From positions 372,001 to 436,000 of the forward strand of contig JAYWIR010000022.1 of NCBI GenBank assembly GCA_036172245.1: 64,000 bases of DNA. The letters are read 5' to 3'. A model generated the notes under the pieces. The model ran no database searches. It was not told the DNA's origin and was given only the letters and a program-made list of their open reading frames with translations. The translations under genes were made by a program, and so were the position numbers. Position 1 is the first letter of the stretch. Every line of letters starts with the position of its first letter. This DNA comes from Raillietiella orientalis. Lineage: Eukaryota. Of the stretch, positions 11,906 to 38,820 are shown piece by piece.

Positions 11906-11955
11906 GTAAACAAGGATGGGGTTCGCCCTGAGGACACAGGTCATGCATCCCGCAG

Positions 11956-12190
11956 GGCGAAATGACCATCGACTGCTGCAAGGAAGGCTCGTCTCCCTGC
12001 AGCAGCAGGTTGCGACTCCTCCCGCACTCCGCGCCGCCGCTGCCACCCAGGGCCGCCCAGGGCAGGAAGGGCTACGCGTCCTCGTCCTCGTCGTCGTCGT
12101 CACCTTTCGACGGCTGCGGCGATCAGGCTGCTGGAGCGGCTACCACCGCTGCCGCCGCCGCCGAGGCGGCGGCGCAGCGTGACGCCTCCG
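11956..12190 (+). CDS. CPEB1: CPEB1-like exon preceding the RRMs
   Basis: CCGCAG acceptor; GEMTID...poly-Ser/poly-Ala...AQRDAS; GTACGC donor at 12191 (phase 1). Same frame as the RRM exons. Confidence 0.7.
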
Positions 12191-12253
12191 GTACGCCGCG
12201 CCTCCTCTCCCTCTCCCGACCCCTTCCTCGCTGCCTACACATCCCGCGGGCAG

Positions 12254-12576
12254 TTCTGTTCCAGCCCATCTGCACGTGGAAGGGGACTCTGAACTTCAAG
12301 AAGAGCAAGATGTCGCGGTACTCGTGCAAGGTGTTCCTGGGAGGGTTGCCCTGGGAGATCTCCGAGCAGGCCCTCGTGGCGGTCTTCCGCCCCTTTGGGC
12401 CTCTGCGCATCGAGTGGCCCGGCAAAGAGAACCTCCTGCAGCTGTGCGGGTATGCCTACGCCGTGTTCCAGTCCGAGCAGCAGGTGCATGAGCTCGTCCA
12501 GGTCTGCACACACGACTACAGCCACGGGGGCAAGCTCTTCTACAAGGTGCCCACGCGGAGGGGCCACCTAAAAGAG
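12254..12576 (+). CDS. CPEB1: CPEB1-like RRM1 exon
   Basis: CTWKG...[14 protein letters not shown]...EWPGK...GYAYAVF...ELVQVCTHD...LKE matches CPEB1/orb RRM1. GTAAGC donor at 12577. Confidence 0.93.
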
Positions 12577-12675
12577 GTAAGCGGGACGAGGCGCGCGCCC
12601 GCTCTTTCCCCGCCGCCCCCAACACACCTCACCCCCTTTTTCGTCGGCCCCCTCCTCAAGGCTGTACCCGGCCAG

Positions 12676-12969
12676 ATTCAGGTCATCCCCTGGGCCATCA
12701 GCGACAGCAACTACTCGCTGCGGTCAGCGCAGAAGTTGGACCCGAAGAAGACGGTCTTCGTGGGCGCCCTGCACGGCATGCTGACCGCCGAGGCGCTCTC
12801 CGTCATCATGAACGACCTGTTCGGAGGCGTCGTCTACGTCGGCATCGACACCGACAAGCACAAATACCCCACCGGCTCCGGGAGGGTGACCTTCAACAAC
12901 CAGAGGTCGTACGTGATGGCCGTGGCCGTCGGCTTCGTCGAGATCTGCACGCCCCGCTTCACGAAGAAG
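12676..12969 (+). CDS. CPEB1: CPEB1-like RRM2 exon
   Basis: IQVIPW...[21 protein letters not shown]...[33 protein letters not shown]...FTKK is diagnostic of the CPEB1/orb subfamily rather than CPEB2-4. Confidence 0.95.
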
Positions 12970-13091
12970 GCACGGTGATGTTCCGTCCCCTTTTTCCCAC
13001 CCCAAGTCCCCTTCCTCTTTGCTCCAGCCTCCACCTCCGCCCACCCCCCTTTGCCCGCGCGGTCGTGTGGACAGTGTCCCTTCTCTTGCAG

Positions 13092-13325
13092 GTGCAGATC
13101 GATCCCTTCCTGGAGGACTCCCTGTGCTCCTTCTGCGGCCTCGTCTCAGGGCCTTACTTCTGTAGGGAGCTGACCTGCCTCAAGTACTTCTGCCGCAACT
13201 GCTGGCACTGGCAGCACTCGCTGAGCGCCCTCTGCCACCACAGACCCCCCATGACCAGGAACGGAAAACTCCGGTCCCTCTGCAGCAGCAGCAGCAGCAG
13301 CTCCTTGCCCTACCTTTCCTTCTGA
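13092..13325 (+). CDS. CPEB1: CPEB1-like terminal exon (ZZ-type zinc finger)
   Basis: TTGCAG acceptor; [15 protein letters not shown]...[23 protein letters not shown]...HHRPPM; TGA at 13323-13325. Confidence 0.93.
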
Positions 13326-18400: not shown

Positions 18401-18900
18401 GACCAACGGATGCTCCGGACACCGTCAGTAGAGTGGAGCGATCCCGACCGGAGACCAAAAGTCAGGTGTCCGGCCGGTCACGGGGTGGTGTGAACGTTTC
18501 GTTGAGGAGCTCATGAGGTTGGGTGACTACGCTTTCGACGAAGAGACTCGCCTCCGTCCCGCTAGCGGTTCAGCGCGAGTTGGTGTGGACATCCCCTGCG
18601 CCGAAGCGCTCGGATTCAGGGAGAGGACCGCCTCTGCTTCCTGCGGCTTTTTTCCTCCTGGTCACGCCGAAAAGGAGAGGACATTTTAAAGAGAACCCAC
18701 GAGTCGGGAACGCGGTTCCCGAGAAAGAACGAAGAAATTTATCGGGAATGACCAGGCCGACTTTCACGGAAGTCCGGAACGGAAGGGAAAGGTCGTCAAA
18801 AGAATAGAAAAAAAAAAAAAAGAGTAGGGGAAGGAGGAAGGTAGGGATCGCAGTCTGGCTTAAATCACGCTTTGCTTCCTAGAAACGTGACTTCTTGACA
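15500..18900 (-). mobile_element. Old L1/Tx1 element: ORF1, APE endonuclease and start of RT (pseudogenised)
   Basis: Decayed motifs occur in the correct order on the minus strand: YEEGESRKTCSSC (ORF1 knuckle), REQEMH (LQETH-like), FRGADCDA (GGDFN-like), FKVTFRLG...RPLL (end of the endonuclease) and IPKGTGL (RT). Confidence 0.5.
16131..16192 (+). pseudogene. tRNA-derived fragment or SINE head
   Basis: Perfect B box GGTTCGAATCC at 16172-16182 within GTCGCGGGTTCGAATCCC, and a weak A-box-like TCGCTCAG about 40 nt upstream. No complete cloverleaf. Confidence 0.35.
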
Positions 18901-18915
18901 GCTTTTTCATCCAGG

Positions 18916-20500
18916 TTTTTCACTCGGATTTTCCGAGGCACGTATTAAAATAACAATGAAAGTCATACCATTAACAAAAGAGTGGTTCTACCACGTGAGT
19001 AAAACTTTTCATGACCGGTACGTAGACCGGTGAGGTCCGTTTTCGCAGAGACGCGAAAGGAAGAACCGGAAAAAAATAAACATAAAACACGAGACGTCCT
19101 CTGCATCTTGTCCAGGATACTGACAAGTGGTGTTCTCATGTTGCACAGGTGGAGCCATCTGGAGGCAGTCTTCAAGCAGAACCGTTTCCAGTGGACGGCG
19201 TCCCTTCCTTGGTAGCCTCTTCTTTCCGCGTTCCAGGCTGCTGCCACGATTCCGCGGACACAGAAGAGAATCACTAGGGACGCGGATGACGGCAGAGCAG
19301 CACGCACGAAGAGGCGTCGAAAGATGTCCCTGGGGCCGCCTACCAAGATTTCAAGGATCGTCGAGAGACGCTCCCAAAGGGGTAGGAGGGAGGCGCAGTT
19401 CAGTAGAAGGTGCGGGAAGGTCTCCTTCTTCCTGCATCTGTCGCAATTGGCATCCACACTCTCCTGTGTCCAATGGCGCGGGCGCGCTTTGCCTCTGCTT
19501 GTCATCCTTGCGCAGGGACCATGCTAATCTTCTCTGTATCGTTCTAATTTTAGTGTATGCACAACCAAAGCGTGTGTCAGGCTGGAGGTGAGGCGAGTGA
19601 GTTCTTTTCCTCCAGCCACGAGCCTTCTTCGAGCAGGATCTCACGACGTTTCTTCGGCTGAGCTGCAGCGGAAGGCGAACCCACGACTGTCGCGAGCGAC
19701 CTCACGGGAATCACGCGGAAGATGGCGCCGATGGACTCGTTCGTCGGCGTCATCTTTTCTTCCTTGCACGCCTCAGGTGATGGGAATGCTCCCCCGCACG
19801 CCCTCGATTCTGCCGCTTCTCCTTGCTCGTAGAGAGCTCGTCTCTGCCCTTGACCTCAGAGGGTCTCACTGCAGAGGTCGTGGACACGGCTCTCGACTGA
19901 AGGTGTCCAAGGCTGCCTGCCCATTCCTTTTGGACGTGAGAAGCAGAGTTCTTATTGCTCCACAGGTTTCCAGCTAGTTTTGGGCATCGGATCCTTCTCT
20001 CATCTTTCTGGAAATCTTGGACCCATTCCTTAGCTCCCACGTCACGTTCCGGAGAGGGTCGAGGGAACCCAAAACGGCCAGCCGTGCTGGGACCCCAAGC
20101 ACTCTTGCTGTTGCCGTTGGTCGCTTTGCTCCCCCGGGACGTCCTCTCTCGGCTCATACGCAGAATCGGATAAGAAGGTGCCAGCTCACTTTGATACAGG
20201 TGGGAAACTGACGGTGGGAACATGCAGGAAGAAGCCATCATCCATTTTGCTTTTTTCTGAAGAAGGCGAGAGGGTCCCCGGGATCTCAGGATGCTGAGTT
20301 TCCGAAAGCCGCGCTTGGGATGGAGGACCATCTGGAGCGAGTGGAGCACCGATTGCGCATATCGGAAGCGAGCAGTCTCTCTGATGAGCATGGAAGGCAG
20401 GAAAGGGCGTGGCGACTACCGGGACCCGCAACGAAGTGCGCGAGAGGAGTCGCCGGCGATGGCCGACAGAGAGCCGATTCTCCTGGTCTTTCCTAGTTGA
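18916..20500 (-). mobile_element. Tx1-clade LINE: 3' part of ORF2 and 3' UTR
   Basis: CDRCRKKETFPHLLLNC is a zf-RVT-type CCHC motif. The VRGIVAAAW...RWLHL tail and 3' UTR motifs are shared with other copies in the window. Confidence 0.75.
19494..19571 (-). pseudogene. U6: U6 snRNA-derived fragment (both ends missing)
   Basis: CATACACTAAAATTAGAACGATACAGAGAAGATTAGCATGGTCCCTGCGCAAGGATGACAAGCAGA (19559-19494) differs at 5 of 66 positions from the metazoan U6 core as recalled. The ACAGAGA box and AGC triad are intact; there is no 3' stem or T-run. Confidence 0.9.
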
Positions 20501-20899
20501 AGAATTGCCTACAGAAAGGTGGCGCCATTGAAAGCTCCCCTATTGATCGAGAGGTGGAGTTTTCACGCGCTACCTTACTGGAGGGCTTCCATCTCGAAAC
20601 TTTACCTATGACGGAACACTTCACAAATCCCGAAATTCTAACGGGATACCTTGGCCGTTTTATAGGTTAGGTAGCTATTCACAATAAATAAATTAAGCAA
20701 TGAATAAAATAAGAGTGGAGAAAGCAAAACAGATATTTTAATTATGTAAAACAAAAACACATGAAAATAGTAAAATTAACTTAACAACCTTTAAAACATA
20801 TTAATTTTTATAATTTTTCACGGAACACTTTCTGTGAAGAATTATGAAAATTATGCAAACATAGCTCGGGAAACGCTATCTTGGGGTATTAAATTCTCA

Positions 20900-22800
20900 C
20901 GGTTGGGTTGCCACACCTTTCCTACAGGGACTAGTGGCAAGTCTGGAACATCTGGTTATTCCCCTTCCGCGGAGTACATGTGGGTGTGGCTTTGGTTAAC
21001 GAACCTCGAGGACTGCGACCCTCTTCGTGTAGCCCAGTCTCATCACCATCTCAAAATTCTGCGAAAAGAGCTCGAAAGCTCGACAAGGTGAGATAGCAGC
21101 TCTGGCTCTTGCTTTGTCTGGCGGATAATCTTCCTCGGAGTGAAGCTGTCTTCCTTGCATTGACCGTGCGATGCTCTCCTCTCTGAAGTCCGCATCCAGT
21201 GTCTGCTCCCCAGAAAGTCTTTGAAGACTCGTCTTCTGCCATCATTCTTACAGAGTGTCATCAGACGTCACTAGGTGGATGGCGCTACCTCTCGTCCACA
21301 GAACGTAAGATGAGCTGAATGAGCAGCAAATCCCCTTTAGAGATGACAACGATTCACAGCTTCCAGCCACGGTCTCAGCCCGATCGTCTGCTTAGTAAAA
21401 CCTCTCCGACAGCATGGGCCTCAAGCGACCTTCTCATTTGCAAGAGTCTTTAAGTCTTTCGGGAGAGTGGGCTTCCCGTCCCCTGAATGGCTCTCATCAT
21501 GTGTTTCTTACCGGAGACGTTGCTGTCCGCCGATCTCTTTATCTTCTCTCGTGATCCGGAGCACAGAAACGTGTGGGATACTCCGGATAGGAACCCTGAT
21601 GCGATTGGGCACGTGGGATTGTGAGATTTGCATCTTAAGGCCTCCTTCCAGACCTTTTCCCGATGGTCATGTTGAGCTGGTCCCGAGTGACCCTTATGTG
21701 CCATTGTGAGCACTGAGCCCCCCCCCCCCCCTCTTCCAAATTTCTAATCTCGGAAGCGTTGTGTCCCATTGCCAAGGATTGCTACCTTTTGACGTCCTGA
21801 ACTTCGCCTTCACAAGGAGTGACCTGTGGTCATCTTTAGTGAGGCCAAGCATCCCTCTTGATGTGCGTCTCAGATTCCTGATCTTGAAGGTCAGGATCTT
21901 GCATGCCTCCCAGTAGGCACGACAGGGGAAAAAGGAAAAAAAATCGTGCCGTGCCTACTGGGATAAGTGCCATCCCTTCTTACGTGCTTCTTGGCCTCAC
22001 AATTGTTCACCTGCTGTCTACTAGGCTGCAGATTGCTCAAATGGGAATATTATTTCGATGGTCCACTGAGATGGAGTGTGGCAAATGTAGACAACTGTGA
22101 AGCCTCGTCTGCTTTAGCTCATCCTGTTCGTCCTGTATCACTTTTGTACTGTCCCCTCGATTATCTCTGCTCTGAGCTCAGGCACCAGATCAAAGAACCA
22201 CAGCGCAATTTCCTTCCCGTGTCACGCCCGACGACAGTGACTTTTCCGTACAGCGACCTTCCTCCTTATCTTGAAGCTATCCGAAAGCGTGGGATTCGCG
22301 AACTGCGCCTGAAGAAGCTCAAGGTGCAAAATTCGCCCACGGGTTTCTCCAGCTCACGAGCTCTCTCTGTCTTCCTGCAAAAGTAGCGTTTTCTGAATCC
22401 CTGTGGAGAGGGCAGCATCAGCTTATCTTCGAATGCGACTTCCACCCGCGTAGCCAGTGTCTCCCGGACGCGTATCCTGGGTGCACTGTACAATGCCGTG
22501 GAGTCCAAGAAAAAGTTTCGATCACATACATGGAAAATCGATAAAGGCTTGCCTCCATCTCTCTCCATGAGATGAGATGGCACAAGTGTGGGCCAAGTGT
22601 GTGATGTGGTGGTTCTACGACGCAAAAGCAACAGTCTCCGACATTCTTTGGCGTTATGTTCCTCCAGTTGACACGACCACGATTTATCTTCCTGAGTCCA
22701 ATGGATGAAATGTACCTCCGTGCCCAGCTGCATGAATAAGCAACAGCGCAGGAGGCCTGGGTTCTGCCACGACCGGCGAGGTCACATGTAAGTTCGTTCA
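20900..22800 (-). mobile_element. Degraded NeSL/Utopia-type non-LTR retrotransposon (RT to zinc knuckle)
   Basis: TLATRVEVAFEDKLMLPSPQGFRKRYFC resembles LAxRL...QKGF...GC. Later ILTFK, AKFRTSKG and ELLSHLV correspond to RT and ETLxHV motifs. Confidence 0.45.
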
Positions 22801-22949
22801 CAAGACAGAGTTAGCGCTTGTACTGGCGACAAGGCGTCGTGGAGACATGACCTTAATGACCTTTCGTGCTCACGTGCAATATCATAGCCGAGGAGGGAGA
22901 CTGAGGCGTAAATATTGCTAGTTGAAAAGTTTACCGAATGTCCCGTCTG

Positions 22950-24130
22950 GGCAGCGTGAAATACCGCTGCCGCGGCCATTTTGTGTGCCCCGAGAGGAGG
23001 GCAAGCGACGTTCAAAAGTGAGTGAGCGACCAGCGCAGTACAAAGTGGAAGCACCGAGCCCTCCCGGATCGGCCCACCATCGAGATCCTCAGAAGAAGAG
23101 GAAGGAGAAAGCGACAAAGGTGGACGTGGAAGTGGGACCATCCACGCAACAAGAACGGCGGCAGCAGCAGCAGCAGCAGCGAAAGCACCCGTGGCTCCAT
23201 CGTACGCAAGCGTGGCCGCTTCCGCCCGATCCGCAAAGCCCGTGTCTTTCACGGGGAGCGACGTTATCGTCAGGAGGGTGATCAAGGAGGATTCAGGCCC
23301 CTTCAGGAATTCCGGCCCTGAGGTTCATGGGCCGATTGACAAACAACGCGGTGCGAGACATTCACCTCGCGATTCACTGCAAGCACATCAATTTCAAGTT
23401 CATCAAAACAACCGTCCCATTCGTCGAAGGATTCTCCCTGTACGCGGACAACCAGGATGTCATCGACGATCTCGTCAAGAATGGAGTTTCCATCAGCGAG
23501 AGGACTCCGAGGAAATTCGGAGCATGCGGCCACGACGGTCTACCTGTCAGACCTGCATCCGATGACGGACGTGCAAGCCGTGTTCGCCCGCTTCCGGCAG
23601 TACGGCGAGGTCGTGCAACTAGAAGAGAAGGGCTACCACGGAGATACCTTCGGGAGGGAAGCCTTCCTAAAACTCCGGATGTCGAAAGGCGCGAAAATCG
23701 CATCTCCTCGTCCGCATCGATAACCATTCGACCAGCAGCAGCGTGGTCTACCGGGAGCAGCCGGACTTCTGCCGCACCTTCACGGCCTTCAGACACAGAG
23801 CGGCGGCCTGACCCCACTGCAGGCGCAGGCCACGCGGCAAACCAAGGCACGGGGTGGCTGACCCCGGTGAGTCCCGGGCGGTGCTACTTCTACTGCAAAG
23901 CCGGTGGGGCCCACGAGAGGAAGGACTGCCGCAGACACCAAGAGTGGCTAGCTTTCCAAGAGGAGGGAGCGAGGGAAGAGGGAATACCCTGCTGAGGCAC
24001 CAGAGGAGGTGCAAAGGCCACTCCTCGGCACCCAGGTCCTCCTCGAAAGGCGCCAAATCGGTAGCCGCATCCTGGTGGATCTTCGATCCAACGCCGCCCC
24101 AGCCACTGCAACCTCCGAGAAGGAGGTAAA
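22950..24130 (+). mobile_element. L1/Tx1 ORF1 (RRM-like plus zinc knuckles), frameshifted
   Basis: TTVYLSDLHPMTDVQAVFARFRQYGEV..., YREQPDFC and CYFYCKAGGAHERKDC are spread over several frames. Confidence 0.7.
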
Positions 24131-24239
24131 ACCCTTTGTTGCCATTTAAATTACAGGGTTTCCTCCTACGGGGGGAGCTCATGTACCAATGAATAGAAGA
24201 AGGCGAAGCCGACTTCGGAGATGCAGTGTGCCTAATTTG

Positions 24240-25050
24240 TTGTTGGATGAACTCTTTATTGTTTTGATGCGTGCAATTACATAGCTTGTTGCAGGGGGCT
24301 CTGGACTATCTTTCGCGGATATTGTTTTCGTTCCTTGGGGGTACCTCGCCCCATCTTTATGGCGCTTTCTTTCTTCCGGTGGGAGAAGATGTCTGGATTC
24401 CCTGGCTGGCTATTGGTTTTCCTTTTGGCGTGGGCTGCATCTTTATCACTTGATACCGGATATATGTAGCCACCATCCGGTGCCCTATTTCCATCAACTT
24501 CTTCCTTGGTATTCCTAGATACTGTAATACTTCTTCGTTACCAGGATCCCATGCTCCCAGAGAGCCGATGATGAACACGTGTACTTTGTTTTGCTTTCCA
24601 CCTTTTCCAGTTGCATTGCTACGTTCTTGTATTTTCCTTCCGTGCTCTTCCTGGCTGTGCTGAACGCCTCCCTTCCATTTTCGTATGGGCAGCAGACGTC
24701 TGGCACGAATACCCGGTTTCCTTTTTTCAGGACCAGATCTGGTTTTAGGGTGGAAGTTGTTCCTGGAACTCTCTGGTTTCTTGATGCAGGCAAGACTCTG
24801 CTTTGTTTCATCTACTGAGGCCTTCCTGATTACTTCTTGAATCGTCTCGTGGCGTGCCATGGTCAGTGAAACGTGTTTCTTGCATCCATTTGACACGTGA
24901 GACAGCGTTTCGTCCTCTGTCCCACGACCCCGATATATGCGTTCTTCTGGTTATTTTGTTGGCTCAGAGTTGATTGCTGTATGGAGCACGGGGAAGGATC
25001 CTGCTTGTTGTAGCTGTTGGTGACTATGAATCATTGGGCATACCATGGAT
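24240..25050 (-). mobile_element. NeSL/Utopia-type retrotransposon 3' end (restriction-like endonuclease)
   Basis: ETLSHV..C, RHETIQ, LKPDLV...DVCCPYEN...ARK...KY (PD-D/ExK fold) and FIIGSLGAWDPGNEEVLQYLGI. AATAAA at 24260-24255. Confidence 0.85.
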
Positions 25051-25089
25051 ATAGCCCTGGAGGACATCCCTCCAGGGGCTTGATGACTA

Positions 25090-25715
25090 GCATTGCAGTT
25101 TGAGTTTATCAGTGTGGATCCAAACATCCAAGCCGTTCAAGGTGCGGAGAGCGAGAATCCCTCCCACACCTCTTAGAGGACTGTGTTGCCCTTTGGGGAC
25201 GCTTTGCAGCGACTCTTGTAATCCCCGGCAGAAACTCCAGGGACGCGATGCGACTCCTTTTTGTGCGGGACGCCCTGCAGCCAACCGCAGCCCTTGCAGC
25301 ACTTTGCTGCCTTCGTGGAATCGTGGCGGCAAGGAGCGATGCCAACCAAAGATCCAACGACAGAAACGGCATCCACTTTCTCTTCGTTTTTTACGGATAG
25401 CGGCCGGATGGCCCCACCTGCACATCTCCATGAAACAGGACCTTGCCGGCATCCTCCAAAGGATGCAGAGGACCGCCCCCTGTAGGGTGCGATTCCTTCC
25501 CGCATTCCCACCCTCAGAATTGTTTTATTTTTGTTTTGTTTACTTTTCTTTTTGTTTGGCCTCTTTTCTCTGCTGTCATGGTGGACCTCACCGGTCTGTG
25601 AACCGGTAACACGGCAGGGTATCTACAGAAAGGACGTGGCTGCCAACAATCCAATCACAAAAATTGTAAATGTTCATTTATTTTAAATAAACGCCCCGGC
25701 GAACCCAGATGAAAA
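25090..25715 (+). mobile_element. 5'-truncated Tx1 copy (ORF2 tail and 3' UTR)
   Basis: LFVRDALQP...LCCLRGIVAA...FLRIAAGWPHL is homologous to the 19.1-19.4 kb and 31.5-31.8 kb copies and shares their 3' UTR motifs. Confidence 0.75.
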
Positions 25716-25949
25716 CTTCAATAGGTGAGGATGAAGGCTCAGTGTTGTTATGCTGGGAAGCAGCTGATCAAGGGTGGCGTATCCTGGATTCTGCTATTTC
25801 CAGGGGGGAGGGGCCCTGCGTTAAGGGGGCCGTAGAAGGCACACGGGATCCGACACGCACTTGGGGGGGGCAAAGGGGGGTCGCTTGGCGCAGGCATGGG
25901 GTTTGCAGAAGGAGGGTTGATCGTGAACAGTCGCTTCACCCGTGGCATC

Positions 25950-26640
25950 ATCGTAGGCAATGAGGTTGTCAGCATCTGTCAGGTCATCGGGAAGATCCAC
26001 ATCAGCATGGGGTCTTGTGGGCCATGTCGGGAGGAGATGTGGTTTCGACGACGGAGGAAAATCTTTATTACTTTAAAAGATACAGGGTTGCTCCTTTGGA
26101 GGGAGCTCGTATACAAAATGGACGGAAACAAGACCGATATTGCCTGTTCACAGTATCCAATAGCATCATTCGCGAGTTGAATGTTCGAGGATTCTGGATC
26201 TCTTTTGACGGGACGTCACTCATGGTCGTGGTACGTTTCGTCCGTTGATCCGGGGGGACGCACCAGTTGTAGCACTTGAGAAGATCTCTTCGAAAAAGCT
26301 GGAGTAGGGGTTCTGCTAATCGGCGACTCCTCCATTTGCAGAGGGCCGCGGAAGGCAAACAGGAAGCGGCACGGGTCGTGGAGGTTCTCACTTTTCGAGG
26401 GGGTTCACTAATGGGTGGAAGATCGAATTCTTCAGGGCGATCGTCACTAGCTGCATCCTCGTACTAAGGTTGTCATCTTCCACAACCTTCTTTTGCACGC
26501 GGTTCAGTGTTGTCGACTCCGCTGCAAGATGTTCTGGAACATAGTGAGGGAACGGGGCTGAAAACCGCATGCGCAGGCTGCACAAGTGAAGCACTGAGCG
26601 TGGGGTTGGGATTAGGGCTAGCTGGACGGAGAGGGTCGAG
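25950..26640 (-). mobile_element. Possible Gypsy LTR integrase remnant
   Basis: LCSLRMRFSAPFPH...LAAE...VQKK...IFHPLVNPLE parallels FC...SAPYHPxSNGLAER...TPH...SPxE. Strongly decayed. Confidence 0.3.
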
Positions 26641-26679
26641 ATCTGTCGGGGGGAGGATGAGGCATCCAGAGCCTTGGTG

Positions 26680-28430
26680 AATAGTTGGTACTTGATGTGT
26701 TTCGCGTAGATGTCTCTGGATACTCTTATGACGGCCGCGATCACCCTGTCCCTAAGCGACCTTAGGGACAAGCGAGAGTGGCTTCGCGCGCGGCTCGAGT
26801 ATGCCCAGTCTGACAAGGACTTCATCGTCCCTTGGGTTCCAGGCTCGCAATGTGCCGATGATGAATGCAACCACGTAGACCGTCCTGCCGGAGTTGCGGA
26901 AACACTGGGCAACTAGAACAGACTTTTTGACTGTTTCTGCCCGCGCAACTCTGAAGGAGTTTCGACGGTTCTCATAGGGGATAGCAACATCGATAATGGC
27001 AGCCTGGGAGTCGTCATAGACAACAAGGTGGGCTCGGCGGAGGGAGGAGTTTGAATCGCCCACTTGTTGGCCGGTTTCAAGTCTGAGCCAAGCTTCGGCC
27101 AGTTCCTTGAGGACTAAGTTGTGGCTCTCAGTTATGGAACTTCCAAGGTAGTATTTGCAGTGGGCGAGTACGTAACAGAGAGATTCCTTAGTGCATCTTC
27201 TGCATCTCCCAGAGAATCCGGGGCGCTTCATGCTCCCACTGAGTGGCAGTAAGTTCAGCCGCGCTCCATGGATTGGATGAATCTCCAGTCTGAAAAACGG
27301 AGAAGCTAACATCACTGCAGAAAGCTGTAAGAGGCAGGATGCAGGGAGACACAGTCCATGATTCGACCCTGATCAGGCTTGCTGAGCAGAGTAGATGTTC
27401 TGCCCATCCGCTGCATCGAGCGAACCGTTCTGGCCATTTGCCGACGCTGGTAGCAGGTGATCCGTTCGCCAAGGATTAAAATGTCAATGGAGTCATCCTG
27501 GACGGACCAGGACAGCAGGAACCTTTTGGAGGCTTGCTGCACTGCTGACCAGAAGCTCCCGGAGTCGTCAGAAGGGACATTAAAAGGGGGGCCACAGTCA
27601 CCATTCAGGAAGCAAGCAATAATAATGTTTGTTGGGGAGAGCGGGATTTGCACCTCACCACTCACCTAAGGAACTGCGCGCGAGTTCACCACCATTGGGT
27701 CAGGTAGGACAAGAGCTTGAAAGTGGAGTCCATGCACATGATGGAGTTCTCTTCCTGGAGGACGGGACATCCTATGCTTCCAACAGGAGCAGCTATATAA
27801 AGCTACTCCGTGGAAGTGGCTTGAAGGAGAGTAAGCATTTGAGATTTCAGTGCTTTCTTAATGACGTTGTCCAGCCGCTTCCAAAAGCTGAGGGGGCTTG
27901 AGGTGCAATCGAAGAGAATGGGTGAGGGAGGAAAAAAAAAAAAGACCTTGAGAGCATCTAATTTCTGCCAAGGGGTCAGGGCAGAGTCGAGAAACCGTTC
28001 CAAGTTCCAAAGCATTTCCCCTTCCCCAACATCCGATAGCAGGGCGTCGGACTCTACTGGTTTGCCCAGATACTCGTAGGCTTCCTTGTCCAGGAGTGCG
28101 GTTGTCGATCTCTCGCCGATGTCGCGCTTCAGGCGTCCGTTGATTAAAATTTTCTGCTCGATGTGCGCGTCGATCAGCGGCTCTCACGGTGTGGATCGTG
28201 ACGCCGGTCGCGGACGGGATGGCCTATATAACGTCAAAATCGACGTTCTTCCGGTGCGGCGCATTGTGAATGTCTTTAGCATTTGCGACTCTGAGAGTTC
28301 CTTTCGCACACGTAGTGTTTGCAATGTCACCATCGGTGGGCTGGAGGGCGGTTCACTCGCTCGGCTGACATCCATGATCTTCTGGAAGATAGCTGTACAT
28401 CCAGGCAGTCCCTGCCGCATTTCCTGATTC
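26680..28430 (-). mobile_element. Utopia-like (NeSL clade) RLE retrotransposon, 3' half, pseudogenised
   Basis: YEYLG, LTPWQKLDALKVF, SKPDQG, HGARLNLLPLSG, CRRCTKESLCYVLAHC, IIDVAIPYEN, FIIGTLRAWNP and IRVSRDIYAKHI, in the motif order typical of Utopia ORFs. Confidence 0.85.
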
Positions 28431-28569
28431 CAATTTCTCGCTTTATGAGTCCTTGTAATGTGTTGATGGGGGGGGAGGGGGGGCTGTAGCTCCCATATTC
28501 CTCATCATTGCCCTTCTCATCACGACGCTCTTGACGAAGAGGACGATAATGGTCCGAAGGATGGGATTA

Positions 28570-31280
28570 TGACGCGGAGTATTTGCGTTCCCTTCGAACA
28601 ATCCCGCTAAGATGCACACTGTTGTGGTCCTCTGCCAGGCCGATCACCGCCTTCATCGTGCTCCAGCCCTGGCGCAGCGTCGGGCAGATGAGAACGTGGA
28701 GCTGGGTTTCCCTGCTGCCACGCGTTTTGCCGAGCTCGTCTTGGATGTTACCAGACCAGTGTGCTGTCCTGCTCCCACTCAGTATGTGTCCGTGGTAAAA
28801 CAGGAGGAGGTCGTCCTGAGTGCCTGGTGAAAGGTCTCTCCTGAAGACTGTGGTTCCAACCGCCTGCAGGTTCACCATGCGGGTCCCGTAGCGGTTGGCA
28901 GCGCTGTTCAGGACGTCTTCTTCCTCTGGGTAGCTGTCCTTCATTACGTCGCAGATGTTGGCTTCGGTGGTCAGGATCCAAGAGTTGGATGCCTGATGTT
29001 TCCAAAGTTCTCTCGTCTTGCAAGTGTGTCTGCCTCTCATGCATTGCGCGTAGCGAAACAGTCGCATCTCGTGGACGTTGCCACTGGTTGCAAACTGTTC
29101 GCAGTCGCGGATGGTCGTTGCTGGCCTCTGAAATATCCTCTTCCAAGTCTCCCTGGGTACCAGTACAAAGTACGGGATAACCATGGCCAGTTCTTTGTTC
29201 CACAACTCCTTGCTTCGAGGCATGATGTTGAAGCGGTGTTTGGCCACCAGTGTCTGCATCTTTTTTCACGTATGGTCAATGTTGCCCCAGTCCCCGTGTT
29301 TGCATATGAGCGCCAACATCAGGCCATTCGAGTGGTTGACCAACCTCTAATAAGCCCTGCGGGCTGCATAAGACCACTGTTCCAAATCGACAGTGAGTTG
29401 TTGCGCGTCCATGTGGTCGATGGCCCGGAGCGGCAACTTCATCCCGATTCCACCTTCCTCTTGCGAGAGGCACAGCAACTTGAGTCTGACTTGCGGCACG
29501 CCAGATTATCTTCCTTTGCAACTTCTCCACTTCCTCTCTCGTCTTCTTGTCCATTCGGCGGAAGGCGACCCCGAAGAGCACCTTGGGAAGGAGCACGACG
29601 TTTCACAAGTTGGCCCTCCGCTTCATGCAAAATCCGACTCTGGCGTACTTGGCTGCTTCTCGTGTTTTCCCCTGGGTTTCTGTCCACAGCAGCTGCGACG
29701 ACGAAGCATCTCCCATGTGGATGCCCAGGTAGTTCACTTTTTCCACCACTCGGAATCCCTCCTCTGTTAGAATGGAGAGATTCAGGATTCCGATGGGCAA
29801 CAGATGGTTTTTTGGGGCGTTGATTTTCAATCCCAATCCTCTCTTCATGGACTCGACTACACCGAAGAACGCACGCTTGTCCGTCTCGTCCTTCAAGAAG
29901 AAGACTTTTCAAGAAGAAAAGCAGATGGTCCTCATACGGCCAGGTGAGTGAATATGCTCTCGTACACGATGATTCCTTCCAGGAGGCCACTTCGCTCTAT
30001 CAAGGATGACACCACCTCCATGTACAGCACAAGCAGCATCGGTCTCAGAGTGTCTCCTTGCCGGATTCTCCTTACCATCCGAATGGTATCTGTGTCTCGT
30101 GCGTTGATCGTGATCTTGCAATGTTGTTCCTTTAATGTCAGTCCGATGTAGTCGCTGAAGTATCCTGGATAGCCCAGTTACTGCAGTATCTTCAGCAACA
30201 TGCCGTGGTCAGCGCTGTCGAAGGCCTTCTCCATATCCGTGAAACCCAGCACCAGGTCATCGCCGACGTAGTCACTGTAACCGATGATGGCCAGAGCACA
30301 CTTCACGTCGTCGGACATGTGGCGGCCGGGCACCCCGCTCGTCTGAACAGGAAGGCAACGGTCGCTGCAACGACTCGCTCAAGCGGTTGACCCAGATCTT
30401 CGTCAACCCATTGGCGTCGGTGTTTAGGATGGAAATAAGCCGCAATTGGGAGATCTGCGAAAGGTCACCTCCCTTCGGCAGCAGTCGCATCCTGCTTCTG
30501 TAGAACGAAGCCGGGAGCTTCCCTTCTCGGATGCAAAGCGTCAGCTCGTGGAACAGGCGCCGATAGTACGAGATGGGCACGCTGTCGGAGCCTGATTCCA
30601 CGTCCGTGCACATTCCGGAGAATGCTGTCTTCACTTCCTCCAGGGAAATGTCTTGTTCCATTCGCTGCTGCTGTTGCGGGGAGCGTCGTTTCTGCGGGAG
30701 CGCAGAATGACGTCCTGCCTTCGCACGATAGGTCTTCTCGCCGTCAGAAGTGGGAGGAGTGGTGTTGGTGGAAGGCCTCCACGATCCCTTCCAACATGTG
30801 ACGTATCATGTCTTATGCCCGAGTCGGAGGCCGTCTGGCTGCGGTCTCCGCTCTTGGCACCAACAAGTACTGCAGGTTCGAATACTCCGAAATGAATCGA
30901 CTCCGAGAGCGTCGTGGGTTCGAGTTCTTCCCGCAAGATGACTCTGGTTGGCCTCTATTGCTTCGGCACTGGTAGCGGTTAAAACCAGATGCTCCCGATG
31001 AGGACCGGGACAAATGGGAGTCGACCTTCGGCCCCTTCCTGGAATCAAGAAGTTGTTGCGGAGGGAGTTCTTCCCCTCCTATTGTGAAGGAGCGGACCCC
31101 ATTCCGGGGGGGCACTCCGCTCCTTACTGATGGAGTAGGTGTGTCGCCACCACCTCTCCAAACAGTGCAGAGAAGCTCACCGATCCCTTCGGAGAAGCAG
31201 CTCCCTTCTGAATTTCGGAAGTGTCCCTTCGGGATTCTCTTCAGAGGAGGAAACAGGAGTGGTTCCCTTGCGGGTTCCCT
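28570..31280 (-). mobile_element. Tx1/L1 ORF2 pseudogene (linker, RT and C-terminal region)
   Basis: ISLEEVKTA, LLPKGGDL...ISILNTDA, DMEKAFD, IRQGDTL, YED, GLKIN, VNYLGI and LLPKVLF, with stops and frameshifts. Confidence 0.88.
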
Positions 31281-33334
31281 CCCTAGTTATCACCCGGTCA
31301 TGCCGGGGTGTTTATTGATTTCAATGAACTTGCCACTTCCGTGATACGAGGCCACACTACGGCCAACCCAACAGTGGACCTTTCCGGTCGCCGATACGCA
31401 GACCTCGGGGGTCACTTCGGCAGCGGAGGGGGATGGGAGAAAACGAAAATGAAAAAAAAAAGAATAAATAAAAATAAATAAGAACAGTTGGGAGGGGCGG
31501 GAAGGGATCACTGCCCGCTGGAGGGACTCCAGGACCCGTTCCAGGATGCCGGTAAGGTCCGTCCGGATAATTCCCAGGTGGAGTCATCTTGCCGCTATCC
31601 GCAGGAAGCGAGCTGCGAACTGGGTAGTGGCCCTTTCCTTTGTTCTTCTGTCGGCTTCGCTCCATGCCGCCACAATACCGCGGATGCAGCAAAGTGCTTC
31701 TGGGGCTGCGGCTGGCTGCAGGACGTCCCGCACGAAAAGAAGGCCCTGGAGGCCGTAAAACGTCCCTGGAGGGCTGCCAACCGGCATCCGGACTGCTAGC
31801 AGGTGCAGGAGGGATTCCTGTTCCCCGCAGCTGAGACAGTCCGGGCTCTCCCTCCTCAGCTTCTAGTGGTCTCGGCGCGCGTTGCAGGGGAAGTCCAGTG
31901 CAGTAGCAGAAGCTCCGACCCCTGCCACTTCGGTTGGAATGCCGAGCAGCAGCTCGCCCCAGCGCTGTTCTCGTAGAGGGACGCTCGGGTTCGCTGCATC
32001 TGCCAGCTGTCCCGTGGTCCAACCACTTATCAATCGCTGCCTGCCTGCAATTTCGCAGTAGGCTTCCCACCGCGGTTTTTGGCTGCTGCCTAGTGCCCTC
32101 CTCAAAAAAAGCAGCCTTGCAACGAGGGAGGTCGTCTCTGCCAACATGTTCCTCCAGAACACTCCTGGACCTTCCGGAGTGAGCAGCGGGAGTAGTTGCC
32201 GAGTCGCAGGTAATTCCACCTCTCACTTTCCCTCTCATTAATCTTCGCCGATTGTTGCCTCCATCCAGGCGCTAGAGTTGGCGGGCAGCAGGTCATCTAG
32301 TCATTCTCCTTCGCCAGGGTGACGACTCAGGAGAAGACGGCATCTTCGCAACTTGGGTCGCGAGCACGAGAGGAAAGACTCGAGTCCTTCCGTCTCGACC
32401 TCACGGCTAACGAAGAGATGTACCGGAACGCACCATGAGGTGCGTTCCGGTACATGAGGTACACGCACCATGAGGTGCCATCTCAGCGAAGACAAGGGTC
32501 TTCGCTGCGATGGCCATGGTTCTCCAAAGCAGCTGTATCTTCATCTGCTTTAGCGTCAGGAGGCCGAGACCGCCGTCCCGACGCGGAGCGCGGAAGTCCG
32601 ACAGCGGGACTCAGGGCCACCCGTTTCCCCACAGAGCGATGCTCAGGAAGTGCTTTGTCCGCTTTTTCATCTCGGGAAGACAGGGCAAACAAAAAGTAGG
32701 GGGCGTAGGAGAGGAGCAGCAAGCGTGTTCCAGATCGTGGCCCGTTCTGGCAAGTGAAACTTGCCCCCAGGAACGGACCGATAGCGGCCTCTGCCTTCTA
32801 GAGGTAGCTGGACCACGCCTCCGCTAAAGAATATTCCCCTAACGGCACACCGAGGTACTTAAAGTACCAGACCGTAAAGATTCCCATGCGAATCCACTCA
32901 GACCGTCTAGCCCATGTCGCACCAGCCGCCACTGCCGACAATTTCTCCCTGTTCACCCTAAGTCCTGTCCCGCCGCTCAATAACTCAAAGAAGCGCTCGA
33001 GCGCTGATGCCGGGGCGGACATGGGGAGCAGGGGCAGAAGATCGTTGGCATACGACAACACGGCAGGCCTTTTCGGACACGAGCTCGGCAGGGTTTCCAG
33101 AGTCTTTTTGTATGCTCTCAGCACCAACTCGAAGTAGGTGCTAAAGAGCAGGGGGCTGAGGCTGTCACCCTGCCTTATGCTGCAGCGTACGCTGTACGTG
33201 TGTCGACCACTGAAAAGAAGGTTAAATAGCGCGAAGCACCCGCAGGAGTGCAAATAAGCCAGGAAGGCCGCCGGGAGTTCCATGCGTTCCAAGAGCTCCA
33301 GGAAGAGTTTATAGTCGACGCAGTCAAAAGCTTT

Positions 33335-33678
33335 CTACGCGATAAGGATGCCATTCAGGGCGCCGCGAAATTCCTGAGGAGGGCGTCGCGATGGCCCCAC
33401 CTGGATCCGCGAGAACAAGAAGAGCTTGCCGACATTCTGAGAAGGATGCAACGGCCCCAGCAGCAACAGTGATCCCTTCCTGTACCCTCCCTGTCCTGTA
33501 CCTTTTGTTTAGTTTTTCCCCCTTCCCCTGCTGCCTTGGTGGACCGTACCGGTCTGAGAACCGGTGACCTGGCAGGCTCTGTGTTTCTTCGTGCGTATGT
33601 CTTGTTCTTGTTTCTTCCACTGACGTCTTTGTTAAAGTTTATTTTTAAATAAACGCCCCGGAGAAATCCGAGTGAAAA
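33335..33678 (+). mobile_element. 344-bp 5'-truncated Tx1 copy with an 11-bp TSD
   Basis: TCAAAAGCTTT at 33324-33334 and 33679-33689. Contains the FLRRASRWPHL tail and the shared 3' UTR. Confidence 0.9.
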
Positions 33679-34130
33679 TCAAAAGCTTTGTGCAAATCGA
33701 CTGCGACCGCAAGAACTCCCGACGCGTCCATCCCTCCTTGGCCTTCCCCTCCCTGGTCAGAGGAGAATTTAGGTTTCCCTAGACCCATCTGTGCATCGCG
33801 CTGTTGCAAGTGCCACTACGTGCTGACGAAGAACAGGTTGGCGTCCATGGTCCGTCCGGGAACAGCGTAAGTCTGCTCCGGACTGGCCACGGGTTTGGCC
33901 ACCCGTCCCATTCTCTTCTCCCACAGTTTGGCAAGCAACTTTGCGCCCGCATTCACTACTGTGATGGGACACCAGTTGCCACCAGTTACTGATCGGAACC
34001 ATTCGGAAACATCCTCTCGTTCGCGGATCAGCATGCACAGTTTGTGCACCAGGAGTACCAGTTCTGCCGCGAAGCATTGGTAAAACTCCGCAGGCAGACC
34101 GTCTTCCCCTACCGTGCCGTTTTCATGGAA

Positions 34131-35687
34131 ACACTGAGACTTCAGTTCAGTGGAAGTGTGGTTGGATTGCCTTCGGAAGGCAATCTGGTTCCGTTCCGGA
34201 GCGGGCCTCCGTTTGAAACACCTTCGTTGCTCCCCTCCTCCGCCCCCTCTTTTTTCTTTGTCCGCCCCCTATTCGGCCAAGCTCCAGGCGAGACGCCTGT
34301 TGAGGAACGCTTTGTGGGGACCCGCGAGAACCAGGATACGCCTCGAAGACTTGGCGGCTCCATCTCGGGATGCCAGTTTAGGCATCCTAACGTTGGACAG
34401 GATCGGGCTGCAAGTGCAGCTCCAGATGCTGGCACTTTGTGCCAAACTATGGTCGACTCCGTGGTGTCCTCCCGCGCGCCTGCTACTGCGGCGCTGCACC
34501 GGCAGCGAAGGACTGCTACTTTCGTCGCTGCCCCATACCGAGCGCGTCACGAGAGGCTTCGGCTTCCCCCTGAGACTGCTTTACAGGCTCTGTAAGCCCA
34601 TTCTTGAATCCCCTGCTGCCCAACGAACTTTAACGCTTGGCGGCAGAAAGCGTTATGGTCCTGGGCAAGGCATCGGGTAGTGTGGCTAATTAAACTTCGT
34701 TGCGTGCACCTTTCCCCCTATCTTCCGTTGGAGGATGTGATGCGAGATCAGGGCAAGTTGGACCAGCCTGGCCGCCATACCCCTCACCGCAGCGCTGTCT
34801 GCCCTAAAGGCAAGAGACGACAGTTGCCTACAGGCAAGAAGGGAGGTCGCCTGCACGATCGCAGGAGCAGTCCGACCCATGGGCAGATGGAGAAGTAGCG
34901 AGCTGGGAGACACCGCCACGCCTCACAATTGTTCGAAGAGACTCCTTCGGTGGAGAGAACTCCTAAGTGTGCCCCCCGAAGAACTTGTGGTCCTTCCTTC
35001 GTGCATGGACACTTCTGTGTTTCCCCTTCCATAGTATCAGGGTGTGATCTTGCTGGTGCATTGGGGCTTTGATTGCAGCCAGCGTAGCAACATTGTTTCC
35101 GGGGGAGTTGCCTCCCCCAGCTGTAGAAGGTGCGGAGCAGCGGAAACGCTCCCGCATCTGCAATTCAACTGCGCTGCCCTCCAAGGACTGTGGCGGAGCC
35201 TGCCTTCAGCTCTCCTGCACCTGAGGAACACCGCAAGGATTTTTATGCGCCGCTTCTTCACGAGAGGCGTCCTCTTGTTAGGTTTGGTCATCGCGACGAC
35301 CTGTTACATCCGCGCCATCGTTACAGCCCGACGCTAGTTGGAGACTCGGGAGATCCCTCGAGAGGCCACCGCAATCGCCGACGTCAACATGACGACGGCC
35401 AGGTAGCCTCATCTTCCAGAAGACGTAAGGAAGAAGATCTCCGGCATCCAACGCCGGTTCTGAAAGAAAGGAACGGCCGAAGCCAAAGATTCCTGTCCCC
35501 TCCCCCCCCCCCATATCTTCTTGTTTTTATTTATTGTCCCCTTCCTCCCATTCCGGACTCTCAGTATGCCCGATCTACGTGTTGGGAAGTCCTCCCCTGG
35601 AACTTCTATTCCCTTTGCCTGGGAACTATGTTCCCAGATGATGTGCATTTTAAATAAACGTCCCGTCGCAACAGGGTAAGAAAGGAA
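34131..35687 (+). mobile_element. About 1.55-kb 5'-truncated Tx1 copy with a TSD of at least 14 bp
   Basis: CCGTTTTCATGGAA at 34117-34130 and 35688-35701. Encodes LAAPSRDASLG (GGLG-like) and CRRCGAAETLPHLQFNC; AATAAA at 35653. Confidence 0.88.
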
Positions 35688-36839
35688 CCGTTTTCATGGA
35701 ACTGAGTTTTGCGATTTGATCTCCTTTTTTTTCTTTTCTTTTCTGCTTCTCGCTTTTCATCTGCTGCCATCCAGCCTCCTGGCCGCTCTCCTCGCCGCTT
35801 TCAACAGTGTTTGTTTTGCTCGGAGCGGCAGCCTCTGCTGGTGCTGCAGAAGAAGCGTAGCTCGCAGCGATTTTTTTCTTTTTTCCGCGCGCTTCTTGCT
35901 TCTTTTCGCAGCCGCGATGCGGACGGTGATTTCAGAGCACACTTTTGTCGTGTGTCCCATCGTTTAAACACCTCACACTGCATTTTGGGGCACCTTTGTT
36001 TCAGGTATTCCGAAGTGTGGCAGTGCCCGCAGCATTTGGGTTTCCCCACGTACCACAGGTCCAACGGTTCTCCGGCGACTTGCAGTTTGTGGGGCAGCCC
36101 ACAAACTGCAAGACCTCGTGAGAAGTGATCCGCTCTGCAGCAAGGCCCCCCGGAAGCCCGTTGGGTTCCACGAGAGGAGAGGGTTTCGTCTACATCGCGT
36201 CTACCGTGCCGTACTTTCCTAATTCGCTACAGACGGCCTCCTTGATCATCTGCAGCGTTATTTCTAGAAGATGGACCACCACCGAGCGGTTCAGCATGAT
36301 CAGGAGCAGCTTCCTGCTCCCCGTCACAACGTGGGTCCTTAGCCGTCGTTGAGCAAGGTCTGCCTCCTTGCAGACTACCTCAATATACTCAACCCCACTG
36401 CGGATGATCATCACAAGAAGCTCCTTTTGTTTGATGCAGTGAGCGTACATTACATTCGAGGAGGCGCGCGCTTTCCGGACTATATAAATTGCTTACCTTG
36501 TAGGGGAGGATTGAGTTATAGTTCTCCTCAATGTAGACTTGTTGTTCCTCCATGCCCGCCGGCAATGGGACTGCGGCCACGGCGTTCCATGCCCTCGATG
36601 GCACGAGGGGCGATTTCGTGGGGGAAGACTGCGAGATCCATTGACTCTGGTGGCGATTCCCATTCACTGGTGGTGAAGTCAGGCATCGCTGCTTTCGCCA
36701 CCATCGAATTCACACAGGTCACTTAAAAGTAAAAACAATCGACGCACCAGCCGCGGAGCGAAGGAAAAACATCTGAAATCGTTGACAGCTCGATGAACCC
36801 ATTGTAAAGAACGTTTTCTCATCAGCCACCCTGGAAATT

Positions 36840-38820
36840 TTCTATGGATAAGGAGGTCGCGTCTTGGACCTCAGGATGGCGTGGTCCGGTCGTGGTGGAA
36901 GTGTACGGACCACATGGAAACAAGGTTGCCTTGGTGGCTCTGTGAGATCCGCTCAAAGGCAGGGCGGCACCGAAGGACGTGATCCTCCTGCTGGGTGACC
37001 TGAACAACTACCTCGAACCGAAGCGCGACCTAGATGTGAAGGCTATCAACATGTACTGACGGAAGAGCTCCAGTGGATGCGGGTGGACTCCACTGCCATC
37101 GACTACTTCCTGCACTCTCACACCATCACGAACTACATGAACGGGCTCCGGGGCTGTCATCGACCTCTCGGATCATCCCCTTTCGTGGTTGAGGATGCAC
37201 GTTTTGTCCTCCTTTCCCGAGGTGGCTGGTACGAGCCAAGGGTAGCACAAGTCTGCTGGTACCAGGCTGGTATGAGCTCCACTCGGAATGTCAGTGCGTC
37301 GTGGAGACCATCGAATCCACGGCCGACATCCTGCGCGCGGACGACTGGGATCGTCCCCAACATGCAGCCCACCTATTCTGAGTGATGAGATACAGCAACG
37401 GGAACTTGAGAGAAGAGGCGTGCCAGAAGGTGCACGAATAACGCCCTTCGCACTGCGTGTACTGGGAACTGTACCGGAGGAGGTGCCTACACAGGGGCGC
37501 GAAGAAGTACATCGGCATGCAGGAGAAGGGAAACCTCTCCATGGACATCTTTTGCATCCACTACCGAGACGCGAACTGTAGAACCTCGGAACAGGTGGTG
37601 GTGAATGCTCTCAACCTTTCCCACTCGGAGCCGCTCGAGGTGAGGAATCTAAACGGCGGGGCCAAGGAGCAGATCCTCCGCTGTGTGGAGAAGCGAGTGG
37701 ATGTTCATCAGTCAGCAAAGATGGAAGAGGAATTCACGGACGAGGAGATCGAGACAGCGTTGCCGGAGCTACACAAGGGCGTGGTAGAGGGATCCAAGAG
37801 CGTGCCCGCCACGCACTGCCAGCAGCATGCACCTGCCTACCTGTAGTTGTTCCGTCAGCTGCTAGTCCGAATCCAGCGAGAACAGGAAAAACTGCCCGCC
37901 TCCTTCCATCGGAGATGAAGGCGATCATTCCCGAAGGGATGAGTCAGCCTCCAGTGCGTCGCCCAGTGGAGGTGGATCTCCGTTCTCGACTCCGATACGA
38001 AGTTGATAACCAAGATTTGGACCAATCGGGTGAGGAAGCGCCTCGAGCAGCTGGTTTCCCCCACGCAGTCGTGCACGGTTCCAGGAAGGCACATGTGAGA
38101 GACCTTAAAGTGTGCTCAAGATCTCCCAGGATACAATAGTATCCCGGGTAACGGCCTGGGCCTCACTGACATCGAGAAGGCCTTCGACTGAGTGGATGAC
38201 ACCATGCTGCTGAAGATTCCCGGGAAGATGGGATTCCCAGACAAGTTCCCAACGCACGTTAGAATCTGCCTGCAAGAGGCAGAATTCACCGGATGTTCGA
38301 ATGATGGAAAGAAGTCCGACAGAGACATCCCGGAATCATCATGCTGCGTTGTTGTTCACGTGGGAGGGCTTTCTCCTGCTTCCTCGATCGAAATCTTACA
38401 TTGCTACAGGGTCATCGTGGTGTCCCTGGACCACTCAGGAGGTGCTCCAGTAGGGAAGAAAGACAGCACGCCTCAATTCCTCAGTGGGAATGAGGAAGGA
38501 GGCAAAGTGGCCTGTGAAGGATGCCAAAGTCAAGGGGAACGCCGTCTGCATCGCACGCAGGTCACGGGAGAGACGCAACGGGTGTGACCCGTGACCCCTG
38601 TCCCTCCTTCCTTTTTATTCGTATATTTATAATTCCCTTCCCTACGTCCTCCCTGCCCTCCTATCTTAGCCCGGCCTACAATACGATGGTTGCTTTTTCC
38701 TTTTTCTTTTTCCCTCCCCTTCAAAATTTTCGGACCGGCTGGTGGATTTACGAACCCATGTGGCCTGATTATTTTCTTTTGGGTGAAAGAGATGCACCGG
38801 CGCAGCAGGGTGAAAGTGAT
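36840..38820 (+). mobile_element. Tx1 ORF2 pseudogene (endonuclease and RT N-half, internally deleted to the tail and 3' UTR)
   Basis: EVYGP, LLGDLN, AIDYFL, FTDEEIETAL and DIEKAFD, then a jump to the ILHCYRVIV tail and a pyrimidine-rich UTR. Confidence 0.8.

Follow-up and report, generated by a model that had tools for sequence, protein, structure and literature searches.

The window analysed here is a 64,000-nucleotide stretch of the Raillietiella orientalis genome (contig JAYWIR010000022.1, positions 372,001 to 436,000, in the 210 Mb assembly GCA_036172245.1), and six sites within it are 3' untranslated regions (UTRs) of decayed long interspersed nuclear elements (LINEs) of the L1 group. 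The tails of this lineage carry a small RNA hairpin, here called hairpin A, whose 5-6 bp stem is selected for pairing and whose loop is conserved in sequence. They also carry a terminal module, consisting of an AAUAAA signal, a further hairpin (hairpin C) and a fixed element end, which is more conserved than hairpin A and the likelier of the two to position reverse transcription. As far as comparison of the copies can tell, the RNA motif is real and well supported; its function is putative.

A preliminary description of this DNA had listed six hairpin strings as versions of a single hairpin, and all six stand at the positions and on the strands it gave. Remnants of open reading frame 2 (ORF2) lie upstream of sites 1-5 in sense orientation (tblastn), and upstream of site 6 are a reverse transcriptase (RT) remnant (37754-38296) and a C-terminal stretch common to a dispersed repeat family. 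A covariance model of hairpin A, built from 23 copies elsewhere in the genome, returns sites 1-5 as its top five matches in the window (E 2.5e-11 to 3e-4, the next match having E 0.14) and misses 38743-38758 at E ≤ 5. Sites 1-5 are homologous; the sixth string is, in an alignment of its element with 12 relatives, a different, downstream hairpin (hairpin B).

Hairpin A across the families

Using a fuzzy terminal motif, we picked 270 distinct 3' ends, 238 of which have ORF2 similarity upstream. This sample is about one tenth of the 2538 genome matches to the terminal pattern (a control gave 0) and is rich in LINE clusters. Clustering of the 206 ends whose UTR measures 150-260 nt, based only on coding sequence, gave 25 families of at least three copies; smaller clusters, singletons, 8 outliers and families with longer UTRs were left out of this set. 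Mean ORF2 coding DNA identity between the 25 families is 62%. As an independent check on the motif-picked sample, 111 ORF2 C-termini in 60 loci were chosen by RT similarity; within 330 nt of these, the terminal motif is present in 100 and hairpin A in 97, and the C-termini without them mostly belong to copies that have a longer UTR, are interrupted or have decayed. The 3' UTR is ~190 nt long, with a U/C-rich tract, hairpin A, a variable hairpin B, AAUAAA, hairpin C and the fixed end in that order. Hairpin A lies 67-120 nt from AAUAAA and ~100-150 nt from the 3' end.

Exact matches to the hairpin A pattern (CCGRNCTGCGNNYCGG) number 2339 in the genome, compared with 35 for a reversed control. 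The loop consensus over the 25 families is CUGCGN (C in 23, U in 24, G in 21, C in 22 and G in 22 of 25). The preliminary YTRHGW must be replaced, as it was drawn from decayed copies together with the non-homologous site. In the 22 hexaloop families with the loop retained, C1 and G5 are always present, with no compensatory change at C1-G5. Identity across families is 0.83 in the loop, 0.60-0.66 in the stems and 0.23 in the adjacent spacer. The GGAC(C/T) or TGACC motif said to precede every stem directly is not universal, mean identity in this bulge region being 0.44.

Pairing is largely kept while the stem varies: 137 of 150 stem cells are paired, whereas 2000 simulations under a null model on the ORF2 tree averaged 107 and never exceeded 133. 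At the closing position, 11 families have U-A, 10 have C-G and 2 have G-C. This pair switched on both sides five times over the ORF2 tree, comes top among 1275 column pairs and has a tree-aware family-wise p of 0.004 (custom R-scape-like null). The closing pair and the loop thus bear out the earlier suggestion that the hairpin should covary and be more conserved than the neighbouring UTR. In a purely sequence-based alignment of real copies, pairing in the inner helix reaches 88% and two-sided changes occur at all six pairs; controls with slid partners pair at 17-41% compared with 77.5% natively. RNAalifold predicts exactly the six inner pairs. Of 91 pattern matches in the loci examined, 88 have a paired closing position, where all four Watson-Crick types occur. 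Some of the stem variation originally cited is decay after insertion; for example, the copy at 35569 reads CCCGAT/GTTGGG and its family CCCGAC/GTCGGG.

Larger structures around hairpin A were considered and rejected. A universal outer stem is only 67% paired: some clades have it, and in others it forms in another way; native outer stems do exceed shuffled ones (p = 5e-5), by a statistic that ignores kinship. Long-range pairing of the 5' side of hairpin A with the extreme 3' end is no better in native than in shuffled combinations of the 25 families (p = 0.25). An 11-bp complementarity between these two regions was seen in family F0 only (L034:8549-8699, minus strand). Kissing of loops A and C was also rejected (p = 0.14), as was a known ribozyme, iron-responsive element or other Rfam family: at gathering score, the window and the LINE loci gave no hairpin match, only U6 and U4 (in the window) and U5 (in a set of 16 LINE loci).

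The terminal module and the element end

Hairpin C has the form CCCGG-N5-6-CCGGG, with a near-invariant stem, and stands downstream of AAUAAA; the element ends 5 nt after it. The loop of hairpin C is variable both in length and in sequence (0.46 identity), as is expected of a hairpin loop. Among the 270 ends, 60 have an exact upstream duplication of at least 11 bp, which starts 4-5 nt after hairpin C in 43. In 96% of ends the sequence finishes in AA, and the A-run is 2-3 nt long in 230 of 252 and never exceeds 4. The elements therefore have no poly(A), and their copying starts at a fixed point ~24 nt after AAUAAA. The shortest insertion, 38 nt, holds little beyond the terminal module. The AAUAAA signal is not strictly invariant, since the family of site 6 has AAGAAA in its place.

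The LINE lineage and its surroundings

The RT remnant at 32801-33334 (Pfam RVT_1) served as query for a search of the genome, in which a first look gave 4881 candidates; 150 were scored and 20 loci retrieved, several of them with ORF2 frames of ~1200 aa. Pfam detects RVT_1 in five of five ORF2s, Exo_endo_phos in four and zf-RVT in four (the last below its curated cut-off), and zf-CCHC in two of three ORF1s scanned, with a score about at the cut-off. The closest solved relative of ORF2 is human L1 ORF2p (E 2e-44), R2 reaching only 3e-15. Target-site duplications are mostly 11-14 bp, and element lengths run from 38 nt to ~5.5 kb. The lineage belongs to the L1 group, as seen in its ORF2 with apurinic endonuclease (APE), RT and zinc-binding parts, its 5' truncation and its target-site duplications. 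Protein relatives in named databases are at most 31% identical, and a search of 1.84 billion protein representatives yielded only one close relative (P0122, 64% identical, without DNA context) and one short fragment. A protein-guided metagenome scan for the motif in other organisms confirmed no relative, and none of 15 stretches with the terminal pattern in other organisms has ORF2 similarity. To judge from these comparisons, this is an isolated, many-family lineage of L1-group LINEs.

Families are often inserted into one another or in tandem, and the 3'-flank consensus differs from family to family (for example F1, with 18 distinct flanks, and G0, with 16), in a comparison that has no shuffle control and to which tandem arrays contribute in some families. 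The F1 flank consensus matches the antisense of a conserved RT motif. Family-specific target preference and insertion into each other appear Tx1-like; the clade label itself, which is putative for this lineage, is defined by RT phylogeny (Tx1L, Keno, Kibi, Koshi and Tx1-Mar; PMC4494074). The lineage shares with Tx1, as described there, an L1-group ORF2, a CCHC-bearing ORF1 and family-specific targets that include other transposons, and Tx1 also resembles it in occasional 5' ends derived from small nuclear RNA (snRNA) (PMC4494074). The CCHC zinc knuckle in ORF1 is not exclusive to Tx1 (PMC5203782). At six loci (L033, L036, L038, L039, L047 and L049), the sequence after a full-length copy of ~5.5 kb matches the 5' flank or 5' end of that same copy, a pattern that fits head-to-tail arrays.

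Table 1. Features of the six LINE elements in the window (positions of the whole stretch).
Feature	Position	Strand	Remarks
Element 1, decayed AAUAAA, terminal hairpin C and 5-nt end	18917..18947	-	
Hairpin A, site 1	19014..19031	-	Loop CUACGU, a decayed CUGCGN; covariance model E 3e-4
Element 1, ORF2 C-terminal remnant	19092..19490	-	tblastn E 1e-31
U6 snRNA copy, 3'-truncated	19497..19577	-	Joined directly to 5' end of element 1 (U6-LINE chimera); Rfam RF00026
Element 2, ORF2 C-terminal remnant	25116..25465	+	tblastn
Hairpin A, site 2, with outer stem and asymmetric internal loop	25570..25617	+	Inner stem-loop 25590-25607; E 2.3e-9
Element 2, AAUAAA, terminal hairpin C and end	25686..25715	+	
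Element 3, AAUAAA, terminal hairpin C and end	31287..31316	-	
Hairpin A, site 3	31391..31408	-	Decayed stem, loop CUGCGU; E 2.7e-4
Element 3, broken ORF2, RT to C-terminus	31533..34109	-	Interrupted by element 4; Pfam RVT_1
Element 4, 344-nt 5'-truncated copy	33335..33678	+	11-bp target-site duplication 33324-33334, 33679-33689
Element 4, hairpin A (site 4)	33548-33565	+	Covariance model E 2.5e-11
Element 4, terminal module	33648-33678	+	
Element 5, ORF2 C-terminal remnant	34138..35328	+	Weak Pfam zf-RVT match; tblastn
Hairpin A, site 5	35569..35586	+	Family stem has A-U second pair, C-G closing pair; E 9.7e-5
Element 5, AAUAAA, terminal hairpin C and end	35652..35681	+	
Element 6, hairpin A, decayed remnant	~38670..38687	+	Absent from preliminary description; alignment with 12 relatives
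Element 6, hairpin B (sixth site of preliminary description)	38743..38758	+	Not homologous to hairpin A
Element 6, decayed terminal module	38787..38816	+	Family has AAGAAA instead of AAUAAA; alignment with relatives

The insertions between 31287 and 35681 are nested: elements 4 and 5 are each flanked by target-site duplications, and element 4 lies inside the RT of element 3. Directly after element 1, at approximately 18640-18860 on the minus strand, is a seventh, strongly decayed tail that resembles those of the site-5 clade (model E 1.2).

A LINE family headed by U6 was rejected: besides the chimera at element 1, 20 U6 copies were examined, and none has a LINE tail attached in sense. U6 retrocopies at four loci (L228, L230, L232 and L240) have target-site duplications of 8-13 bp; an A-rich tail is present in some, and others are truncated and lack it. 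Two further snRNA matches were seen. At 22862-23992 (plus strand), a full-length U4 match is followed by a broken frame with zinc-knuckle-like spacing, unlike the ORF1 of this lineage, and a U5 match in a LINE-rich locus (L042:8323-8439, plus strand) is not fused to ORF1 or ORF2 sequence. The window also holds a frame at 24360-24950 (minus strand), without a Pfam match, which we take from its motifs to resemble the C-terminal restriction-like endonuclease region of R2/R4-type elements; this suggests another clade of retrotransposons without long terminal repeats. Exons of a CPEB-like gene, with RRM_7 and CEBP_ZZ domains, occupy 11932-13322 (plus strand).

Possible roles of the tail

What, then, might the tail do? 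RTs of the L1 type are the textbook relaxed class, which reads poly(A). With slightly better than even confidence, we lean towards a reading in which this lineage would work like a stringent-type LINE with a hairpin-marked tail. AAUAAA would direct cleavage of the transcript at a fixed end, ~24 nt downstream, and ORF2p would bind terminal hairpin C and start target-primed reverse transcription there, so that the poly(A) tail would be left uncopied. Hairpin A is probably a second, loop-specific handle for ORF2p or ORF1p, by analogy with the same pattern of exchangeable stem and fixed loop in ZfL2-1 (PMC4176376); it would help to pick the element's own RNA and may not be strictly required. The proposal of a structured RT-recognition element therefore stands as to a selected stem-loop in the 3' UTR of an L1-group LINE, but a role in reverse transcription is only plausible for hairpin A, given its distance from AAUAAA and a family that lacks it.

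Several observations weigh against the hairpin-marked tail. Two families have 5-nt loops of other sequence. Family-wise correction leaves only the closing pair significant, the second pair having E 8.3 and the others being weak, and within families most changes are one-sided decay, with 61 broken pairs and 26 wobbles to 7 two-sided Watson-Crick changes. When single sequences are folded, mean pair probability exceeds 0.5 in only 12 of 25 families for hairpin A and in 8 of 25 for hairpin C. Hairpin C is without covariation, which cannot prove a stem that is invariant, and its pairing rests on this invariant stem and the variable loop. Family F10, with four copies in different flanks (L106, L121, L122 and L134), has no hairpin A; it has lost the loop and 3' arm and kept the 5' arm, and its copies still have the terminal module and a target preference in common. 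This genome also contains U6 retrocopies that are flanked by target-site duplications and have no LINE tail, so some RT in it copies hairpin-less RNA. No SINE (short interspersed nuclear element) sharing the tail was found among the 32 of 270 sampled ends that lack an ORF2 match; a relaxed-threshold transfer RNA scan of these ends gave scattered matches of odd types, taken as noise.

The one-sided changes would also be expected if the tail were ordinary conserved sequence, its pairing only apparent and due to a self-complementary CCGG core, shared ancestry and decay, and four of the six stem pairs do have few independent changes that are not significant. We consider this very improbable, and the tree-null and family-wise results already largely rule it out: the closing pair has switched on both sides five times, stems that break the CCGG palindrome remain paired, and slid partners pair far less often than native ones. 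A role for hairpin A outside reverse transcription is unlikely, though less so. It may bind a host protein that controls the stability, export or translation of the RNA or the use of poly(A) sites, and not be read by the RT. A loop that stays constant while the families average 62% ORF2 DNA identity would fit a host partner that evolves slowly, C1 and G5 kept in 22 of 22 families fit a protein-bound pseudo-triloop (PMC3884659), and the placement between the U-rich tract and AAUAAA is also in keeping with such a role, but hairpin A has no candidate host factor and no Rfam match.

Hairpin A could instead be the main RT-recognition element itself, with the terminal module serving only 3'-end formation. 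The conserved loop on an exchangeable stem, which fits the logic of ZfL2-1, and the presence of hairpin A in 97 of 111 RT-selected tails speak for this, but we think it quite improbable: hairpin A stands far from the 3' end, the four F10 copies with their different flanks do without it, and a hairpin at variable distance leaves the fixed start 5 nt after hairpin C unexplained. A bolder form of the hairpin-marked tail, which we regard as unlikely, is a two-part signal in which a CUGCG pseudo-triloop of the foamy virus or hepatitis B virus (HBV) epsilon type would load the element's own RT, and the invariant terminal hairpin next to AAUAAA would act as a ruler setting the start exactly at the poly(A) junction, only two A's being copied. 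If true, an L1-type ORF2p would here start independently of poly(A), at a point set by RNA structure. Hairpins of foamy virus, HBV epsilon and iron-responsive elements form C-NNN-G-N hexaloop pseudo-triloops, and the foamy virus construct studied by nuclear magnetic resonance contains a UGC triloop that a C-G pair across the loop closes (PMC3884659). The consensus loop here would give the same UGC triloop with a C1-G5 pair, a resemblance for which we claim no homology. The foamy virus signal needs a G-C closing pair and a pyrimidine bulge, and a C-G closer abolishes it (PMC3884659); unlike that construct, the families here have a G-C closer in only 2 of 25 and C-G in 10.

No published description of this motif was found in the literature searched, a scope outside which Repbase, Dfam, subscription journals and supplements lay. 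The preliminary contrast with an L1 that recognises poly(A) nevertheless overstates the novelty, because the principle, compensatory changes in the 3' hairpin of an L1-clade lineage, is already known from the monocot 1a lineage (LINE1-1_ZM, with ZmSINE2/3; Ohshima 2012), where a conserved 3'-end hairpin was taken to indicate stringent recognition (PMC3472496). In both lineages an L1-clade LINE combines compensatory changes in a variable stem with conserved loop letters. The monocot loop is, in that account, UCU with a CGAG flank, lies in the last 45-50 nt and is shared by SINE partners (PMC3472496); here, in contrast, there are a CUGCGN loop, three hairpins and a poly(A)-less end, with no SINE partner seen. 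L1-clade families without a 3' repeat have already been reported (PMC3747384), and 3' stem-loops have been proposed even for human L1 (PMC5135761).

Among the stringent L2 elements, binding of the ZfL2-1, ZfL2-2 and UnaL2 tails by ORF2p was shown experimentally, with the region between endonuclease and RT doing the binding, and the ZfL2-1 tail is specific as to its loop but allows its stem to be exchanged (PMC4176376). The tails here resemble these in their short stem-loop, and ZfL2-1 in particular in the exchangeable stem and specific loop. They differ in belonging to the L1 group and in ending with 2-3 A after a separate terminal hairpin, whereas L2 ends in repeats.

The principle itself will be no surprise to a specialist. 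The stringent L1-clade cases in the compared literature, however, rest on sequence alone, and this lineage offers ~25 natural families, intact ORF2 copies, a covarying hairpin, a hairpin-less family and a nucleotide-precise end. With these, template choice by an L1-type ORF2p becomes readily testable by tail swaps.

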